From a virus (lineage: Duplodnaviria > Caudoviricetes): a DNA stretch of 54,622 bases. Within the stretch, counting starts at the first letter, position 1; each line of letters starts with the position of its first letter. The notes beneath the pieces were generated by a model, which was not told where the DNA came from, searched no databases, and worked only from the letters and a program-made list of their open reading frames with translations. A program made the translations under genes and the position numbers. Of the stretch, positions 15,304 through 48,451 are shown piece after piece. The stretch is from IMG/VR virus record IMGVR_UViG_3300017741_000005, positions 1 through 54,622 of that record. One strand, given 5' to 3'.

Positions 15304-15396
15304 ATTATATCGTATATAGCATTGAAAGTCAAGGAGAAAAATAATCGCTTTTTATTAAAAAAAGTGCTTGACATTCTCCGTAGAATGTCGTATGGT
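15304..15396. promoter_or_regulatory. Divergent sigma70 promoter pair
   Basis: Minus strand TTGACT(15332-15327)-N17-TATAAT(15309-15304); plus strand TTGACA(15368)-N17-TATGGT(15391). Confidence 0.8.
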
Positions 15397-15419
15397 AAGT
15401 TATAGTCAAGAGAAAGGAA

Positions 15420-15584
15420 ATGATTATGTTTCAGATTCGTCAAGAGAGTAACAATCGTTTAGTCGCTGGTTTCTTTGAAGTCATTGAGACTATTGAGGAA
15501 GCAGAGAAGGTTTTGAAATACTTTCAAGACCGTATTGAAGAGAAATTGATTATTGTTGAAATAGCTGTTGAGGAGGCTGCCTAA
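15420..15584 (+). CDS. Small early hypothetical protein (54 aa), not in ORF track
   Basis: AAAGGA SD; MIMFQIRQESNNRLVAGFF...EEAA*; stop overlaps the next ATG. Confidence 0.7.
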   Translation: MIMFQIRQESNNRLVAGFFEVIETIEEAEKVLKYFQDRIEEKLIIVEIAVEEAA

Positions 15585-15808
15585 TGAATTATACTGAACT
15601 ATTTGAAACCACATTTTTGTTTAAAAGATTTGACCCACTTGATATGGACAATCCATATGTAGAGAAAGAAGTTCGTATCGTTGATATCCTTGATGGGCCT
15701 GGCGCAGACCGCCGTGATTATGTTGTAGTCGAAGGTCTAGAAGATTATGAGGTAGATATGCCCCTTGAGAACTTCTTGAAAAACACTCGTGTGAAAGAAA
15801 ACGCTTGA
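15584..15808 (+). CDS. Hypothetical protein
   Basis: GAGGAGG SD, TAATG coupling. Confidence 0.7.
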   Translation: MNYTELFETTFLFKRFDPLDMDNPYVEKEVRIVDILDGPGADRRDYVVVEGLEDYEVDMPLENFLKNTRVKENA

Positions 15809-15833
15809 CATCATCTGTTTGATTTGGTAATGT
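15805..15833 (+). promoter_or_regulatory. Sigma70-type early promoter
   Basis: TTGACA-N17-TAATGT with TG extension. Confidence 0.65.
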
Positions 15834-15860
15834 AAGATATAACTTGAGAAAGGACTTGTT

Positions 15861-16043
15861 ATGAAATACGAAGTAAATATCACTGGTAAAACAAAAGACA
15901 CCATTGTCTTTGAGACCGCAAAAGAAGCCGTGAAGTATGTTCTTACCGAACTACATGATGTAGGGTTCACCGTTGATGGTCGGACTTACGAAGAGAAGTT
16001 CGAAGAAATCACTTGGGTTGGTAAAGGAGAGGTTATAGCATGA
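15861..16043 (+). CDS. Hypothetical protein
   Basis: AAAGGA SD; follows the promoter. Confidence 0.7.
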   Translation: MKYEVNITGKTKDTIVFETAKEAVKYVLTELHDVGFTVDGRTYEEKFEEITWVGKGEVIA

Positions 16044-26363: not shown

Positions 26364-28087
26364 TTTATTTTGAGAAACTTAGATTTAAAAATTTTCTATC
26401 GACAGGAAATAACTTTACAGAAATAGATTTTGAAACAACGGCAACCACACTCGTGGTTGGTCAGAATGGTGCAGGTAAATCTACTATGTTGGATGCTTTG
26501 TCATTCGGTCTGTTCGGTAAACCTCATCGTAAGATTTCGAAACCACAACTCGTCAACTCTATCAATGGTAAAGGGACGTTAGTTGAAGTGGAGTTTCGAA
26601 TAGGTTCACAGAAGTATAAAGTTGTCCGTGGTATCAAACCGAACAAGTTTGAGATATGGGTAAATGGTAATCTGTTGAACCAAAGTTCTCATGCAAGAGA
26701 ATACCAGTCTATGCTTGAGAACAATATCGTCAAGTTGAACCACAAGTCCTTTCATCAGATTGTGGTTCTTGGGTCTTCATCCTTCGTGCCCTTCATGCAA
26801 CTCTCCTCTCAAGCAAGGCGTGATGTGATTGAAGACCTACTTGACATTAATATGTTTAGTAAGATGAATGGTATTCTCAAAGAAAAGGTTTCGATTCTCA
26901 AAGACCAGATGAGTGAGAACATACACGAGTTGGCTATGGTCGAACAGAAAGTTGCATCACAGAAGAAGTATCTTCGTGACCTGAGTTCGATTACAGCTCA
27001 ACAGAAGAAAGAGAAACTTGACACCATCAAATCTTTACAAGAGGACATTCGTGTTCTGAATGAAAAGAATAATGAACTTACAAAAGATATCACAGAGAAG
27101 TCTCCAGATGTCAATGAGAATATGACTAAGATATCAGAACAAATTACGTCTCTTGACAAATACATGATGCAGTTTTCAACACAACAAAAAGATGTGGTCA
27201 AACAGGCAAAGTTCTTTGAGGATAATGATATCTGTCCGACCTGTTCACAAGACATCGATGAGACAACGAAGAACTATCATCTTGATAAATGTAAGACCAA
27301 AGCAGGGACTATCAAGAATGCACTCGACATGGGTGACCTACAGAGAAAAGAGTTTTCGGAAAAACAAGAATCCATTCAAGTTCAACTTGATTGCATAAGA
27401 GAGTGGCAGTCGTCAGTCAATGCAAACAATCAAGAGATTTCTACAATCAATAGAAGTATCGATAGACTCAATAGTGAACTTGATACTATTGACAATGAGA
27501 CAGGTGATTTGAGTGAGGCTAATGACGAACTTGAAAATCTTAGAGTTGAGAAAGAGCAACTTCAAAAGAAGAAGTATGAACTCTCTGAGCAGAACTCATA
27601 CTATCGTATCAGTTCAGAGTTGTTGAAAGACACTGGTATCAAGACAAAGATTATCAAACAGTATCTACCAGTCATCAACAAACTTACTAACGAGTATCTA
27701 CAAATTCTTGACTTCTTTGTTCACTTCAATCTGGACGAAGCCTTTGAAGAGACTATTCGGTCACGACATCGTGACGCATTCTCCTACGACTCATTTAGTG
27801 AAGGGGAGAAACAACGTATCGACTTATCACTACTCTTTACTTGGAGACAGATTGCCAAGATGAAGAATAGTGTTGCAACCAATCTTCTCATTCTGGACGA
27901 AACATTTGACTCGTCTTTGGATGGACAGGGCATCGAGAATCTGATGCACATCATTCACTCTCTTGCCGAGGATACAAATGTTTTTGTCATCTCTCACAAA
28001 TCTGAGTTGGAAGAAGATTCACAATTCAAGAGACGTATTGAATTTATCAAAGATAAAAACTTCAGTAAAATCAAAATAGCTGCTTGA
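26360..28087 (+). CDS. gp46: Recombination ATPase subunit gp46 (Rad50/SbcC-like)
   Basis: GQNGAGKS, CPTC zinc hook, FSEGEK signature, LILDE, ISH. Confidence 0.97.
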   Translation: MIYFEKLRFKNFLSTGNNFTEIDFETTATTLVVGQNGAGKSTMLDALSFGLFGKPHRKISKPQLVNSINGKGTLVEVEFRIGSQKYKVVRGIKPNKFEIWVNGNLLNQSSHAREYQSMLENNIVKLNHKSFHQIVVLGSSSFVPFMQLSSQARRDVIEDLLDINMFSKMNGILKEKVSILKDQMSENIHELAMVEQKVASQKKYLRDLSSITAQQKKEKLDTIKSLQEDIRVLNEKNNELTKDITEKSPDVNENMTKISEQITSLDKYMMQFSTQQKDVVKQAKFFEDNDICPTCSQDIDETTKNYHLDKCKTKAGTIKNALDMGDLQRKEFSEKQESIQVQLDCIREWQSSVNANNQEISTINRSIDRLNSELDTIDNETGDLSEANDELENLRVEKEQLQKKKYELSEQNSYYRISSELLKDTGIKTKIIKQYLPVINKLTNEYLQILDFFVHFNLDEAFEETIRSRHRDAFSYDSFSEGEKQRIDLSLLFTWRQIAKMKNSVATNLLILDETFDSSLDGQGIENLMHIIHSLAEDTNVFVISHKSELEEDSQFKRRIEFIKDKNFSKIKIAA

Positions 28088-28112
28088 CAAATCTGTCGAG
28101 TTATGATATACT
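28084..28112 (+). promoter_or_regulatory. Sigma70 promoter for gp45
   Basis: TTGACA-N17-TATACT with TG. Confidence 0.8.
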
Positions 28113-28143
28113 CGATGTAATTTTAACGATTGGAGAATATATT

Positions 28144-28818
28144 ATGGAATTATCCGACACTACAATTAATATTTTAAAAAACTATGCTACCATTAATCCA
28201 AACATTGTAATTGGAGAAGGTAACACTATTAAGACAATTTCGGTTGCCCGAAACGTCATGTCAAAGACAGAGGTCGTTGAGACATTTGACTCAACGATTG
28301 GTATCTACGATTTGAATGAGTTTCTGGGTGCGGTGTCTCTTGTCAAAGAACCACGTTTCGAAGTGACAAAAGATTACATCAACATTTCTGATTCTAGACG
28401 TTCAGTAAAATACTTTCTGTCTGACCCTGAGATGTTGACATCGCCTGGCAAAGATGTTAATATGCCTGACACCGAAGTTAAGTTTAGTCTAGATACTGAT
28501 ACACTCAGTGATTTGAAAAAGGCCGCATCTAACTTTGGTTATGAGAATATCTCTATCAAACCATCGACAGGTTCGGTATCACTTTCTGTAACCGACACAG
28601 ATAACGCAACTTCTAATGTGTTCTCAATTGATGTTGAAGGAACATATCCAGAGGGAGCAGACTTCAACTTTATTTTGAATGTAAATAATCTGAAGGTTGT
28701 AAATGAAGATTATGATGTTGAGATTTCATCTAAACTAATCTCACACTTTACAAGTAAGCAGTCTCCGACTGAATACTTTATTGCACTTGAAAAGTCATCT
28801 ACATATAATGGAGCATAA
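28144..28818 (+). CDS. gp45: Sliding clamp gp45
   Basis: MELSDTTINILKNYATIN, GIYDLNEFL, YFIALE; ATG at 28144 after GGAG. Confidence 0.95.
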   Translation: MELSDTTINILKNYATINPNIVIGEGNTIKTISVARNVMSKTEVVETFDSTIGIYDLNEFLGAVSLVKEPRFEVTKDYINISDSRRSVKYFLSDPEMLTSPGKDVNMPDTEVKFSLDTDTLSDLKKAASNFGYENISIKPSTGSVSLSVTDTDNATSNVFSIDVEGTYPEGADFNFILNVNNLKVVNEDYDVEISSKLISHFTSKQSPTEYFIALEKSSTYNGA

Positions 28819-28819
28819 A

Positions 28820-29029
28820 ATGGCAAAAGCAGAAACAAAAGACCACACTACTATCTACGAATTGGGCAATAGAGTATCTCGTTCTACTGTGGCAGTAATT
28901 GATACCGTTGTTCAACGAGGCGGTTTCAAAGGTGAAGAACTCTCAACAATCGGTCAACTAAGAGACCAAGCAGTTCAGATTATTCAAATCTGTGAGGAGT
29001 ATCAATCCGCACAGGGAGTTGAAGAATAA
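28820..29029 (+). CDS. Conserved small protein (VIDTVVQRGGFKGEELSTIGQLRD)
   Basis: GGAG SD; between gp45 and gp44. Confidence 0.75.
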   Translation: MAKAETKDHTTIYELGNRVSRSTVAVIDTVVQRGGFKGEELSTIGQLRDQAVQIIQICEEYQSAQGVEE

Positions 29030-29095
29030 GTCAGGCGTTCTCCTTTCCGCCGACTTGGTGAGGTGAGCGTCTCCTTTCCGCTCACCTCATTTTTT
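29028..29095 (+). ncRNA. Tandem hairpins with CUCCUUUC (anti-SD-like) loops; the second doubles as an intrinsic terminator
   Basis: aagtc(a)ggcg-TTCTCCTTTC-cgccgactt then tgaggtgagcg-TCTCCTTTC-cgctcacctca-tttttt. Confidence 0.6.
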
Positions 29096-29096
29096 A

Positions 29097-29125
29097 TTGA
29101 CATATCACGGCTGATGTGATATACT
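29097..29125 (+). promoter_or_regulatory. Sigma70 promoter for gp44
   Basis: TTGACA-N17-TATACT with TG. Confidence 0.8.
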
Positions 29126-29147
29126 TGTTTTTTATTATGGAGAGAGT

Positions 29148-30086
29148 ATGAGTAATGAATTTCTATGGGTCGAGAAGTATCGTCCCAAAACTATCGCAGA
29201 TACTATTCTGCCAAAAGAACTCAAGCAAACGTTTCAGAATATTGTTGACTCTGGTGAGATACCCAACATGTTATTCACTGGCACGGCTGGTCTTGGTAAG
29301 ACTACAGTTGCTCGTGCAATCTGTAATGAACTAGACCTTGACTACATTGTCATCAATGGTTCGGAAGAGGGTAACATCGACACCCTGCGTGGTAAGATTA
29401 AACAGTTTGCTTCTTCGGTATCTCTATCAGGTGGATACAAAGTTGTTATTCTTGACGAGGCAGACTATCTCAATCCTCAATCCACACAACCTGCATTGCG
29501 TGGTTTCATCGAAGAGTTCTCGCAGAACTGTCGATTCATTCTGACATGTAACTTCAAGAACAAGGTCATAGAACCTCTTCACAGTCGTTGTGGAGTGTAT
29601 GAGTTTAATACCACCAAGAAAGATATGATTGACCTCTGTGGGTCATTTATGACACGTCTGATGGACATTCTGAACAAAGAAAACGTCACTTATAATAAAG
29701 AAGTGATTGCAAATCTTATTACTAAACATGCTCCTGATTGGAGACGTATTCTGAATGAATCACAAAGAGGTTCAATCGGTGGAAGCATAAACACTGATGT
29801 TATCATTAGTGACAATAGTCAGTATTCTGACCTTTACAAACATCTCAAGGATAAAGACTTCAAGAAGATGCGTAAGTGGGTTGTAAACAATGTTGATGTT
29901 GAACCGGCTGCAATCTTTCGTGGTGTCTTTGATACAATGGAAGGTCATGTCAAACCTGAAAGTATTCCGCAGTTGATTCTCATCCTTGCGGATTATCAAT
30001 ACAAGAATGCATTCGTTGCTGACCATGAACTAAATATGGTTGCATGTCTAACAGAATGCATGGCAAACGTGGAGTATATAAAATGA
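29148..30086 (+). CDS. gp44: Clamp loader large subunit gp44
   Basis: LWVEKYRP, GTAGLGKT, VILDEAD, PLHSRC. Confidence 0.97.
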   Translation: MSNEFLWVEKYRPKTIADTILPKELKQTFQNIVDSGEIPNMLFTGTAGLGKTTVARAICNELDLDYIVINGSEEGNIDTLRGKIKQFASSVSLSGGYKVVILDEADYLNPQSTQPALRGFIEEFSQNCRFILTCNFKNKVIEPLHSRCGVYEFNTTKKDMIDLCGSFMTRLMDILNKENVTYNKEVIANLITKHAPDWRRILNESQRGSIGGSINTDVIISDNSQYSDLYKHLKDKDFKKMRKWVVNNVDVEPAAIFRGVFDTMEGHVKPESIPQLILILADYQYKNAFVADHELNMVACLTECMANVEYIK

Positions 30087-30157: not shown

Positions 30158-30357
30158 TTGAATATCGCACATGGGAAAAAGTAGTAGCACGAGCATTAGA
30201 CTACTATATTGGTCGGACAGATGAGGATGAACCGAAAGTTCCTATCCTTACAATGAAACAAGCACGAAAGGGACTATACCTTCGTATGTTATTACAGTTC
30301 GTCAATTGGATTACCTGTTTCTTTATTATTGCAGGTGTGATTAAACATTGGGGTTGA
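30154..30357 (+). CDS. Small membrane-associated hypothetical protein
   Basis: ATGA coupling; C-terminal hydrophobic segment. Confidence 0.65.
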   Translation: MIEYRTWEKVVARALDYYIGRTDEDEPKVPILTMKQARKGLYLRMLLQFVNWITCFFIIAGVIKHWG

Positions 30358-30362
30358 CAAAT

Positions 30363-30791
30363 ATGGATGATTATGATATAAAGCCAAATGGACGAGTAAA
30401 TCGTGGACTTCACTGGACAACTAAAGTATCAGAGAAGTTCTTACTCGCAATTATCGGTGGTCTCACTATGATTGCGGCTGGCGAACAAATATGGATGATG
30501 TATGAGAAGTGGACAGTTCAACTTGGAGATTTATTTCTTCTATTCATTTATGCAGAGGTTGTAGGTATGGTCGGAGCATTCTATGCAAGTCATCGTATTC
30601 CTGTAACCATTCCAATCATCATTGCGATTACTGCACTCTGTCGTCTGGTTGTCCTGCATAGTAAGGACATGGCCGCAATGCAGTTGTTGGCAGAGACAGG
30701 TGCTATTGCAGTTCTTGCCGCAGCTGCATATCTGATGTCTCTCAAGGATAAACTATCATTAGAAAAAGAAAGACTTCGAGATGATAAATAA
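30363..30791 (+). CDS. psiE: Phosphate-starvation-inducible PsiE-family membrane protein
   Basis: Four hydrophobic helices; DLFLLFIYAEVVGMV..FY.SHRIPVTIPIIIAITAL.R motif. Confidence 0.8.
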   Translation: MDDYDIKPNGRVNRGLHWTTKVSEKFLLAIIGGLTMIAAGEQIWMMYEKWTVQLGDLFLLFIYAEVVGMVGAFYASHRIPVTIPIIIAITALCRLVVLHSKDMAAMQLLAETGAIAVLAAAAYLMSLKDKLSLEKERLRDDK

Positions 30792-31203
30792 GTGGGACTA
30801 TGCACACATGCAGGCCGCAGAGGTGTATGCAGAATTATCAACCGCAACACGACTTAAAGTCGGAGCAGTCATTGTAAAAGACAATCGTATCATATCGATT
30901 GGATACAATGGTATGCCTTCGAGTTGGACAAATGTGTGTGAGTATCAAGACTCCTTTGATGGTAAGTGGATTACCAAACCAGAAGTTCTACATGCAGAGA
31001 CAAATGCAATCGCAAAGGTTGCACGTTCAAATGAAAGTGCAGAGGGTGCTACATTATACACTACAGTCTCACCTTGCCTTGATTGTGCAAAACTGATATA
31101 TCAATCTGGTATCACACGTTTGGTCTGGAGAAACCAATACAAAACTGATGCAGGAAATGTTTTTCTCGTAACCGCTGGTATTGAGGTAGATTACTTACCA
31201 TGA
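30781..31203 (+). CDS. cd: dCMP deaminase
   Basis: KVGAVIVKDNRIISIGYNG, HAE, SPCLDC zinc motifs. Confidence 0.93.
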   Translation: MINKWDYAHMQAAEVYAELSTATRLKVGAVIVKDNRIISIGYNGMPSSWTNVCEYQDSFDGKWITKPEVLHAETNAIAKVARSNESAEGATLYTTVSPCLDCAKLIYQSGITRLVWRNQYKTDAGNVFLVTAGIEVDYLP

Positions 31204-31568
31204 ACCCATTTGATTATGTGACCTCTATCAACTATTCTAAGAAAGATGTGATGGAAGATGAAAAGACCTACAACTCTTTTATGGTCAATCGCAGTCTTTC
31301 TTACTTCTCTGATACAGTTGTTCTCGCAAATGAGATGAATCGATATCATCACCTAGACAATCGTCTACAATACCAATTTCTTATAAATATTGTTAGGAAA
31401 CGCAAAAGGTTTTCTAAATGGTTAAAACCAGAAATACAGAATGACGTTGATGTGGTGAAAGAATACTATGGTTACAGTAATGAAAAGGCTTCCCAAGTCC
31501 TTCCTCTTTTATCACCCCAACAAATAGAAATAATAAGAAATAAGGTGAATAAAGGTGGAAGAAAATAA
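31200..31568 (+). CDS. gp62: Clamp loader small subunit gp62
   Basis: MNPFDYV.SIN..K, FMVNRSLSYF.DT...ANEMN, RKRFSKW, YYGYSNEKA. Confidence 0.93.
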   Translation: MNPFDYVTSINYSKKDVMEDEKTYNSFMVNRSLSYFSDTVVLANEMNRYHHLDNRLQYQFLINIVRKRKRFSKWLKPEIQNDVDVVKEYYGYSNEKASQVLPLLSPQQIEIIRNKVNKGGRK

Positions 31569-31965
31569 TTTAGTATCATGGAGTCCTGCAAGTATGTTAG
31601 AGATTACTCTAGCAGAACCAGATGACTTTCTCAAAGTCCGTGAGACTCTGACACGAATCGGTGTCGCATCACGAAAAGATAAAAAACTCTATCAGTCATG
31701 TCATATTCTTCATAAACAGGGACGATACTTTATCGTTCACTTCAAGGAACTATTTTTGCTTGACGAGAAGAAATCAAATCTAGAAGTTTCTGATATAGAG
31801 AGACGTAATACAATTGCAACTCTTTTGTCTGATTGGGGTCTCGTTGAGATTCAAAACAAAGATGTGATTGAGGGTTGCGCCCCTTTACGGACAATAAAGA
31901 TTATTGGTTACAAAGAAAAAGACCAGTGGGAACTATGTCCGAAATACAATATCGGGAACAAATAA
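31555..31965 (+). CDS. regA: Translational repressor RegA
   Basis: PDDFLKVRETLTRIGVAS...LYQSCHILHKQGRYFIVHFKELF. TATAAATA at 31382 lies upstream, inside gp62. Confidence 0.97.
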   Translation: MEENNLVSWSPASMLEITLAEPDDFLKVRETLTRIGVASRKDKKLYQSCHILHKQGRYFIVHFKELFLLDEKKSNLEVSDIERRNTIATLLSDWGLVEIQNKDVIEGCAPLRTIKIIGYKEKDQWELCPKYNIGNK

Positions 31966-45980: not shown

Positions 45981-46054
45981 GCGGATGTAGCATAATGGTA
46001 ATGCACTGGATTTCCAATCCATTGATGAAAGTTCGATTCTTTCCATCCGCTCCA
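45981..46054 (+). tRNA. trnG: tRNA-Gly(TCC)
   Basis: Acceptor gcggatg/catccgc, D arm gcat/atgc, anticodon loop tttccaa, T arm gaaag-ttcgatt-ctttc, encoded CCA. Confidence 0.93.
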
Positions 46055-46300: not shown

Positions 46301-46490
46301 ATCACATAAAGCATCTGGTGCTGAAAACATGCAACAGATGAAGACTACGTTGTTCTTCAAGGCATGTAAAGAAGTTCTTGAAGAATATGGTCATGAGGAT
46401 GCGGCATTCTACTTCGAGCAAGTGGAGACACACATGCGAAGTGGTGGTAGTCTTGATGCTAACAAGGCTGGCAATATCCTTGGTGTATAA
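46293..46490 (+). CDS. Hypothetical protein
   Basis: Overlaps the upstream stop; its end overlaps the late promoter. Confidence 0.6.
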   Translation: MGKSHKASGAENMQQMKTTLFFKACKEVLEEYGHEDAAFYFEQVETHMRSGGSLDANKAGNILGV

Positions 46491-46493
46491 ATA
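46486..46493 (+). promoter_or_regulatory. T4 late promoter TATAAATA driving the tmRNA
   Basis: Exact consensus immediately upstream of the tmRNA acceptor piece. Confidence 0.8.
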
Positions 46494-46499
46494 AAAGTA

Positions 46500-46740
46500 T
46501 TCGTTGAAGCAAACCAAAAGGTATACTGGACGTGGGTGCAATACCCACCGCCTCCACCAAACCCCCTCTGAGGGGGCGAAATAGGTTCGACAGGTATTGA
46601 TTAGGAATGTGGAGAATAGGTGTGGAAGCGACCTTAATCGTAACAAACTCGTAAGTGCAAACGATAATTACGCACATGAAGAGTATGCGCTAGCCGCATA
46701 GTTTTCGGGGTCAGGGGACGCCTAGCAACAGAAGTCCTCA
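46500..46740 (+). ncRNA. ssrA: Two-piece (circularly permuted) tmRNA, tag ANDNYAHEEYALAA
   Basis: The 3' half comes first (T arm gtggg-tgcaata-cccac, CGCCTCC-A-CCA ending 46559), then a 12-nt intervening segment, then the 5' half GGGGGCG (46572) giving a G3-U70 pair. Tag ORF 46657-46701 ends LAA*; ctagcaacagaa follows. Ends approximate. Confidence 0.92.
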
Positions 46741-46759
46741 CTTTTTATTAGGAGATACT

Positions 46760-47197
46760 ATGATTAGATTTATTACATTATTTGTGGCGTTAGCATTCAC
46801 TACGCCAGCATATGCAGAAGAAACAATTATTGAAATGTTGAATAAACGAGACGATGGCGCTCGTATGGTATATTCAGAAGATGTCACATACATTAATGCA
46901 GGCGACACAATCAAATGGTTGCCTACCGCCAAAGGCCATAATGTTGAGTTTATTGCAGGGCCAGAAGGTTATGAATTACCCAAACGTTCTAAGTTCAATA
47001 AAGAAGTCTCATTGACATTCGATGTGCCTGGCGTATATTTGTATCAATGCACACCCCATAAAAGTATGGGTATGATTGCACTTGTTGTTGTTGGTAATGA
47101 TACATCAAATTTGACACAAGTTGCGGCGACTAAAGTATTTGGTGGTAGTAAGAAGAAGTTACAAACTCTTGCCGCTGGAGTATCTTTAGGCAATTAA
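46760..47197 (+). CDS. Pseudoazurin-type blue copper protein with signal peptide
   Basis: Signal peptide ending PAYA; MLNK...MVY, GHNV and CTPH..MGM type-1 Cu ligands. Confidence 0.88.
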   Translation: MIRFITLFVALAFTTPAYAEETIIEMLNKRDDGARMVYSEDVTYINAGDTIKWLPTAKGHNVEFIAGPEGYELPKRSKFNKEVSLTFDVPGVYLYQCTPHKSMGMIALVVVGNDTSNLTQVAATKVFGGSKKKLQTLAAGVSLGN

Positions 47198-48128: not shown

Positions 48129-48157
48129 TTGACAATTCCTTCTTGTTATGATAATAT
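48129..48157 (+). promoter_or_regulatory. Sigma70 early promoter
   Basis: TTGACA-N17-TAATAT with TG. Confidence 0.75.
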
Positions 48158-48187
48158 GATTATATTGTTTGATAAATTGAAAGGAAA

Positions 48188-48451
48188 ATGATTATGATTT
48201 CATCAACATTAAAACAGGAACTCCTCTCCTTGTCTTCTTTTGAAGAACTAAATGAGGTAATGAAGTTTGCACAAGATGCACTCTCATTGAAAAACAAAGT
48301 CAACATCAATCTTGGTGACGAAGTTTATATCGTTCGTAAGAATGGAAAAACTCTTGGCACTGTTGAAAAAGTAAACCAGAAAAAAGCGATTATTAAAATC
48401 TATGATGGTCAACGTTACAGCGTTCCATTCACAATGTTGGAGGCTGCATAA
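48188..48451 (+). CDS. Small KOW/SH3-like early protein
   Basis: GDEV......GTVEKVNQKKA.......Y.VP..ML pattern; AAAGGA SD. Confidence 0.65.
   Translation: MIMISSTLKQELLSLSSFEELNEVMKFAQDALSLKNKVNINLGDEVYIVRKNGKTLGTVEKVNQKKAIIKIYDGQRYSVPFTMLEAA

Follow-up and report, generated by a model that had tools for sequence, protein, structure and literature searches.

Why would a phage carry, downstream of its sliding clamp gene, two adjacent hairpins whose loops resemble the 3′ tail of 16S ribosomal RNA (rRNA)? The question arises at positions 29027-29095, on the plus strand, of a 54,622-base (54.6-kb) fragment of an uncultured virus genome, IMG/VR record IMGVR_UViG_3300017741_000005, referred to here as the window. 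The original prediction, made from the sequence, had placed a candidate small RNA between the sliding clamp gene gp45 and the clamp loader gene gp44. The region was correct, but the element does not lie directly between these two genes; it lies between a small gene, orf69 (28820-29029), and gp44. We find that it is a real, conserved RNA element, very probably a terminator, with ribosome-tail-like loops, and that it is a new phage version of the hairpin design with anti-Shine-Dalgarno (anti-SD) loops.

RNA folding of 29020-29100 gives two adjacent hairpins with near-identical loops and a closing U6 tract, all as originally described. The loop of hairpin 1 is UUCUCCUUUC (29038-29047) and that of hairpin 2 is UCUCCUUUC (29070-29078), with the form U(C/U)UCCUUUC common to both. 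Hairpin 1, whose stem contains the TAA stop codon of orf69 (29027-29029), is the weaker of the two, at -9 to -12 kcal/mol among relatives; hairpin 2 alone folds with -21 kcal/mol. Together they reach a minimum free energy of -31.6 kcal/mol, compared with -16.7 +/- 2.75 kcal/mol in 200 shuffled sequences, none of which folded as well (z = -5.41). Two copies of the 9-mer CTCCTTTCC, and no more, are present in the window, both inside the element, against a chance expectation of 0.30 for the window; at least two copies anywhere were found in 3 of 100 shuffles.

Hairpin 2 and the U6 tract almost certainly constitute the intrinsic terminator of the gp45-orf69 unit: a G+C-rich hairpin of 12 pairs is followed by U6, 61 nt past the orf69 stop codon. 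Three other clear plus-strand terminators in the window (7398, 12663 and 33296) have loops of 4-5 nt, compared with 9 nt in hairpin 2. The original prediction was of a small RNA derived from a 3′ untranslated region (UTR); the element, for which no promoter of its own was seen, is the end of the gp45-orf69 mRNA, and hairpin 2 is foremost a terminator. Among contigs from RNA libraries (four runs, X16-X19), one covers 28571-29034 and another 29036-29272; these are of low depth, show no RNA ends, as contigs do not, and may be DNA carry-over.

To place the element among relatives, we drew on a gp44 search of virus contigs, which returned 595 relatives; the best 80 were kept and make up, with the window, 81 loci (designated L with a number). 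A second protein-anchored search, with gp45 of L013, brought 80 further loci, and two pattern scans that contained the motif gave extra copies, which are biased towards the loop and were used for stem statistics only. The orf69 gene is found upstream of gp44 in 73 of the 81 loci, window counted, and TCCTTTC lies within ~110 nt past its stop codon in 17 of these 73. In a quick gp44 protein tree of 75 rows, with one truncated protein and five identical duplicates left out and with provisional branching, all 15 motif rows fall in one clade of 23 rows. Two arrangements occur. Type A, which includes the window, has the motif in both hairpins; in type B the first hairpin is unrelated and the motif is found only in the terminator hairpin.

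Conservation of the loop among relatives, on which the original prediction had been staked beforehand, is borne out. Across 33 distinct motif-bearing intergenic sequences from the protein-anchored loci (12 of type A, 21 of type B), the loop columns TCCTTTCC are invariant in every one, while the neighbouring stem, linker and promoter-spacer columns of the same sequences vary. The core UCCUUUCC is likewise constant in related marine virus contigs, on stems that differ by compensatory substitutions, and the full loops read U(C/U)UCCUUUC, UCCUCCUUUC or UUCCUUUC. Directly beside the loop, the stem letters depend on the lineage (GAGCG, GGGCG, GTGCG, CAAC, TAAC or GAGAG), and the motif lineages are ~0.4 changes per site apart in the gp44 protein. 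The check by covariation, also foreseen originally, gave compensatory changes for the terminator stem in both types. Over 18 type A sequences, hairpin 2 keeps all 12 of its pairs, every cell (100%) is paired and six of the pairs differ in both partners, a score reached by none of 500 shuffles; RNAalifold independently recovered the helix with 10 pairs, six of them compensatory. The type B hairpin (15 sequences) has 13 pairs, 95.9% paired, with three changed on both sides; 26 of 500 shuffles reached this number of pairs and none the covariation score. Hairpin 1 offers little informative covariation, its outer and inner stems being near-constant and its register shifted by MAFFT.

Twelve relatives within the clade (L013, L015, L020, L025, L239-L242, L254, L261, L286 and L290) have a short plain terminator in place of the motif. 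In these the whole inner stem-loop is gone, and none shows a point-mutated loop. In Phage C48C1, the closest named record, the orf69 homologue is followed by a different structure that lacks the motif. Because the core is invariant on changing stems and losses remove the entire inner stem-loop, the loop is probably, as judged from these alignments, under selection and kept independently of its stems wherever it is present.

The motif also appears to be tied to one place. YTCCTTTC was not above control frequency in five near-complete relatives, and of ten other same-strand motif sites in two of these, none lies in a stable hairpin loop; in the window and the near-complete relatives examined, the motif occurs in a hairpin loop at the gp45-orf69/gp44 locus only. 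Within that locus the element remains right behind orf69 where insertions displace gp44 or the promoter is replaced (L010, L274, L281 and L284), which makes it part of the upstream mRNA. A DNA site linked to the promoter, or a role for gp44 alone, is hard to reconcile with this. The orf69-gp44 gap is an insertion hotspot, exceeding 300 nt in 18 of the 73 loci. These 18 insertion loci, of 347-1191 nt, are L010, L017, L019, L024, L027, L029, L031, L034, L037, L042, L046, L047, L049, L050, L052, L055, L056 and L060; by eye only, a tRNA-like stretch follows orf69 directly in L027 and L049. In six other loci (L051, L062, L068, L072, L073 and L078) orf69 runs into gp44, the stop codon of the former sharing letters with the start codon of the latter (TAATG).

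The likeness of the loops to the ribosomal tail is supported by comparison with the literature. Both contain CUCCUUUC, eight letters of the 16S 3′ tail GAUCACCUCCUUUCU that PMC6288834 prints for several bacteria, although this tail may not be that of the host. The same letters are found in a Sinorhizobium oligonucleotide (PMC6943124). From these features a mechanism can be put together. The gp45-orf69 transcript would end at hairpin 2 and U6, with the gp44 promoter following directly, in a terminator-promoter cassette of the PeSL kind, PeSL being a stem-loop joined to an early sigma-70-type promoter in T4-like phages (PMC4122927). Both loops present a copy of the final 16S rRNA letters, the anti-SD tail, and, being single-stranded, could pair with purine-rich ribosome-binding sites in competition with the 30S subunit. 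In cis, the partner would be the site of gp45 on the same mRNA, GGAGAA here and GAAAGG(A) or GAGAGGA in relatives. In trans, the GAAAGGA leaders of small early genes would be the target, bound by the terminated mRNA as a whole or by a 3′ fragment. That the loops pair with purine-rich Shine-Dalgarno (SD) sites is a prediction from complementarity that we put forward tentatively; candidate partners are the gp45 site itself and, in three small early genes, the GAAAGGA leader.

Several calculations bear on this prediction. Among the 74 ribosome-binding sites called in the window, AGGA (25/74), GGAG (17) and AAGG (16) are prominent. Ranked by predicted duplex with the loop, the gp45 site comes third of the 74, at -9.7 kcal/mol, with gp44 at rank 13 and orf69 at rank 36. 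All 42 motif-bearing loci with a readable gp45 leader have GAAAGG, AAAGGA, AAAAGGA, GAGAGGA or GGAGAA there, with predicted duplexes of -6.0 to -12.0 kcal/mol. Predicted pairing of each loop with the gp45 site of its own locus was slightly better, at -9.02 kcal/mol, compared with -8.75 +/- 0.12 kcal/mol for permuted combinations, and 7 of 1000 permutations were as low. As for the partners in trans, the original prediction had pointed to early genes led by GAAAGGA. Three promoter-proximal small genes do have it, two of them nearly identical in letters up to the start codon, but the positions had to be revised, with sites at 15412, 15848 and 48179 and starts at 15426, 15861 and 48194.

A number of observations weigh against pairing as the function of the loops. 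The gap between own and permuted combinations is only 0.27 kcal/mol, by a statistic that ignores shared descent, and a 16S-like tail pairs with the gp45 sites nearly as well, at -8.46 kcal/mol. Any SD site is, by definition, complementary to an anti-SD-like loop, and the classical CCUCC is not the part conserved here, some loops reading UUUCCUUUC or UUCCUUUC. Relatives without the motif at first seemed to have weaker gp45 sites; the wider sample supplied counter-examples, L242 and L254, which have GAGAGGA or GAAAGGA at gp45 and yet carry a plain terminator without the motif. The exact 8-mer GAAAGGAG has no match on the plus strand of the window. Occurrences of GAAAGGA-N4-9-ATG on the strand of the locus number 3 and 8 in two motif-bearing genomes, compared with 1, 2 and 4 in three without the motif, which is no clear association. 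Finally, 4 of the 13 type B rows of the quick gp44 tree are without the motif, and the loop is therefore dispensable.

The likeliest alternative is an ordinary tandem terminator in a PeSL-type cassette, with its loop kept for reasons other than pairing in cis or trans; we consider this possible though doubtful. Such reasons could include a pyrimidine loop that avoids mispairing with the pyrimidine-rich 3′ arm, folding kinetics, termination efficiency, or gene conversion that homogenises the copies. The order of parts would suit it, since, as in the PeSLs of PMC4122927, the loop sits between a G-rich and a C-rich arm and a near-consensus sigma-70 promoter comes next, and so would the insertion hotspot at the junction, the type B 3′ arm that extends the pyrimidine run of the loop, and the repeated loss of the motif with the terminator retained. 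What it accounts for poorly is the loop itself, eight letters of which stay invariant over wholly rewritten stems and across ~0.4 changes per site in gp44. Type A, moreover, keeps the loop twice, on unrelated stems (L103, L156 and L165). A loop of 9-10 nt costs stability, the three other clear terminators in the window have loops of only 4-5 nt, and, unlike PeSL sequences, the motif is without repeats at other cassettes of the genome.

A second alternative, which we regard as unlikely, is that a protein with a preference for pyrimidine-rich single-stranded RNA, or for the ribosomal 3′ tail, binds the loops as its site or is titrated by them as a decoy. It could be ribosomal protein S1, a cold-shock protein or a regulator of the phage, or else an endoribonuclease directed at the anti-SD tail. 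RNAs that titrate proteins usually display two copies of an invariant single-stranded motif, a design that the type A element shares. The conserved part is UCCUUUCC and not the classical CCUCC, which would also fit a protein reader. The anti-SD tail of 16S rRNA is a known cutting site of toxins, and the U^CCUU that one such toxin recognises (review PMC5408214) forms part of the invariant core. No such protein was identified in the window. The product of orf69 is a poor fit, since the gene is far commoner than the motif (73/81 compared with 17/73 loci) and its plain two-helix hairpin model, with which no fold search was made because a fold of this kind matches unspecifically, gives no hint of binding. 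RegA is encoded in the window, but its known operators are A/U-rich start regions.

The element may also be pictured as a mimic of the 16S 3′ tail that serves as a sink for whatever reads the tail. In its boldest form, a candidate decoy for a tail-cutting host endoribonuclease or toxin in abortive infection that protects the ribosomes, we hold this to be very improbable. The sink could instead be directed at the SD leaders of a class of early genes, in which case the RNA may shut off early translation; T4 uses the RegB nuclease for its early-translation shut-off.

A site at the DNA level is very improbable as well. In this reading a transcription factor would recognise two direct repeats of ~15 bp that lie 31 bp apart, ahead of the gp44 promoter, and the copies do share GCGT(T)CTCCTTTCCGC, the second centred ~22 bp upstream of the -35 hexamer. 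By eye, however, motif and -35 hexamer are separated by 19 nt in the window and L004, by 22 nt in L014 and L016 and by 35 nt in L243, and the spacing is undefined in the promoter-less L281. Type B has a single copy, replacement of the promoter leaves the motif next to orf69, and the covariation of the stems points to a folded single strand. Still less credible is an RNA from the minus strand, with loops GGAAAGGAG that would act as a CsrA/RsmA-type decoy or as ribosome-binding sites. The minus strand also has a stable fold (-32.3 kcal/mol, z = -5.45), with two GGA in each loop, but no U tract follows its hairpins, its promoter-like matches are weak (9/12), neither GGAAAGGAG has a start codon at ribosome-binding distance, and its open reading frame of 33 codons (29103-29002) is frame-shifted by the differing linker lengths of relatives. 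The U tract and all identified neighbouring genes lie on the plus strand, which the original prediction had favoured.

The weakest alternative, that the phage captured a true alphaproteobacterial cuckoo/alpha-r14/CcsR small RNA, has in its favour two adjacent hairpins with a common anti-SD-like loop motif on variable stems and a hint of an alphaproteobacterial host, but it is scarcely credible given that the defining loop CCUCCUCCC is absent, that no member of the family matches in Rfam even at E <= 10 and that no promoter of its own was seen.

Two further roles were considered and rejected. In an attenuator, a ribosome at the orf69 stop codon would free hairpin 1 to pair with hairpin 2 at its 5′ arm; this rearranged fold, at -8.6 kcal/mol, does not surpass shuffles (-6.8 +/- 2.3 kcal/mol), and hairpin 2 stays intact with the first 14 nt masked. 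As regards coding, no open reading frame of at least 40 codons runs over the element, and the 33-codon frame 29103-29002 on the minus strand is out of frame in relatives.

The element sits in a T4-like order of genes, with a gp47-like phosphoesterase, a gp46-like SMC ATPase, gp45 and orf69 before it and gp44 after it; a PsiE-like protein, a dCMP deaminase, gp62 and the translational repressor RegA follow downstream (see table). Phage C48C1 is related to the window at ~69% DNA identity, and the stretch that holds the element was found in many marine viral and seawater DNA runs. The gp44 promoter begins 2 nt past the U tract and lies 23 nt upstream of the gp44 start codon. The orf69 protein is strongly conserved, 14 columns being invariant over 42 sequences, and its model is a two-helix hairpin (predicted local distance difference test score 87.7). 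The only named phages with the protein are Phage C48C1 and Agrobacterium phage Atu_ph07, three records in all.

Features of the window around the element and elsewhere, by position
Feature	Position	Strand	Remarks
gp45 promoter, sigma-70-type	28084-28112	+	TTGACA, 17-nt spacer, TATACT, TG ahead of it; 11/12 consensus positions
gp45 SD site GGAGAA	28132-28137	+	Complementary to UUCUCC of hairpin 1 loop
gp45 sliding clamp	28144-28818	+	Pfam gp45-slide_C, E = 4.3e-14; 'DNA polymerase processivity factor' in Phage C48C1
orf69, 69 amino acids, function unknown	28820-29029	+	Start one base past gp45 stop; no Pfam family; phrog_13789
Hairpin 1	29027-29057	+	Pairs 29027-29032/29052-29057 and 29034-29037/29048-29051; A29033 bulged
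Hairpin 2	29058-29090	+	12 pairs, 29058-29069/29079-29090
U6 tract	29090-29095	+	Forms the probable intrinsic terminator together with hairpin 2
gp44 promoter, sigma-70-type	29097-29125	+	TTGACA-17-TATACT; 11/12 consensus positions
gp44 clamp loader large subunit	29148-30086	+	Pfam AAA, DNA_pol3_delta2 and sub-threshold Gp44_lid; clamp loader in Phage C48C1
PsiE-family membrane protein and dCMP deaminase	30348-31203	+	E = 1.3e-20 and E = 7.7e-25; between gp44 and gp62
gp62	31200-31568	+	
RegA gene	31555-31965		Pfam Translat_reg, E = 1.8e-42
Three small GAAAGGA-led genes	15368-15426, 15805-15861, 48129-48194	+	TTGACA-type promoter, leader of ~25-30 nt
tRNA-Gly (anticodon UCC) and two-piece permuted alpha-type transfer-messenger RNA	45981-46054 and 46449-46792	+	Tag peptide ANDNYAHEEYALAA; Rfam alpha_tmRNA 120 bits, tmRNA_permuted 121 bits

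Other signals lie close to the two start codons. The stretch TTATTATGGAGA upstream of gp44 (29133-29147) and ATATATT upstream of gp45 (28138-28143) recur at the same place in most loci and are conserved well past the motif-bearing clade; with a RegA gene in the window, they may be RegA operators, as in T4. Within the spacer of the gp44 promoter there is an inverted repeat, ATATCAC, 7 nt, GTGATAT (29102-29108/29116-29122). Relatives (L003-L009, type B loci) have other palindromes at the same position, for example AACACAT...ATGTGTT and GTTTCATA...TATGAAAC, and a few (L279) are without any. The repeat may be an operator, or a hairpin made only in read-through RNA. The alpha-type two-piece transfer-messenger RNA of the window is a hint that the host is an alphaproteobacterium.

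Bacteria are already known to make small RNAs that are arrays of hairpins with anti-SD loops. In abundant uncultured marine T4-like phages, this design is part of the terminator that closes a unit of the core replication operon, and it has persisted over deep divergence. Should ribosome-binding sites indeed be what the loops pair with, they would give the phage an RNA route of its own for tuning clamp synthesis or silencing early genes, and terminator loops would carry regulatory information that genome annotation ignores. The element is short and offers clear loop mutants and natural loss variants, which make it directly testable given the host or a surrogate system. A search of the literature on this loop in phages and on anti-SD terminator loops, supplements excluded, found no description of the element.

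Among known systems, the closest in design are the alphaproteobacterial small RNAs cuckoo, RSs0680 (CcsR) and alpha-r14 (PMC4615179 and PMC8034643). The cuckoo family is defined by two to four adjacent hairpins, each with a CCUCCUCCC loop (PMC4615179); the phage element has two, with the same anti-SD-like motif in each loop, and in both systems the stems vary by compensatory changes. In Rhodobacter, the cuckoo hairpins are co-transcribed downstream of a small open reading frame, much as the phage element follows orf69. The differences are that the loop is UCUCCUUUC and not CCUCCUCCC, that the element is phage-borne, and that its last hairpin itself terminates a protein-coding mRNA. The motif CCUCCUCCC is found neither in the two phage loops, UUCUCCUUUC and UCUCCUUUC, nor in the variants of relatives. 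Rfam gave no match to the element at gathering score; at E <= 10, seven weak matches fell in 28800-29300, none of the cuckoo family. The likeness to cuckoo and alpha-r14 originally proposed is thus one of design, and membership of the family was not upheld.

With PeSLs, as PMC4122927 describes them, the element shares a G-rich/C-rich stem-loop directly before a near-consensus early sigma-70-type promoter (TTGACA-17-TATACT, 2 nt past the U tract) and a junction at which genes are inserted (18/73 loci). In that description a genome holds many PeSL copies, and stem and promoter, rather than the loop, are what defines them, whereas in the phage element the loop is the conserved part and is found at one locus only, a count that concerns the loop motif alone and not a survey of PeSLs in general. 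Ordinary intrinsic terminators resemble it in the 12-pair G+C-rich stem and the U6 at a gene end; they differ in lacking a sequence-invariant loop of 9-10 nt and a second, upstream hairpin with the same loop.

Pyrimidine-rich loops with a comparable task are known from other bacteria. In icaR of Staphylococcus aureus, an anti-SD element in the 3′-UTR pairs with the 5′ leader of its own mRNA, and in the small RNAs LhrC and RsaE/RoxS the loops of hairpins and terminators carry motifs rich in CU or C. All have in common with the phage element pyrimidine-rich loops of 3′ hairpins or terminators that are complementary to purine-rich ribosome-binding sites, in several copies per RNA. They have no sequence relation to it and gave no Rfam match at E <= 10; the phage loops belong to a replication operon, and their pairing is only predicted. 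The phage motif, moreover, copies the 3′-terminal letters of 16S rRNA and is not a run of C.

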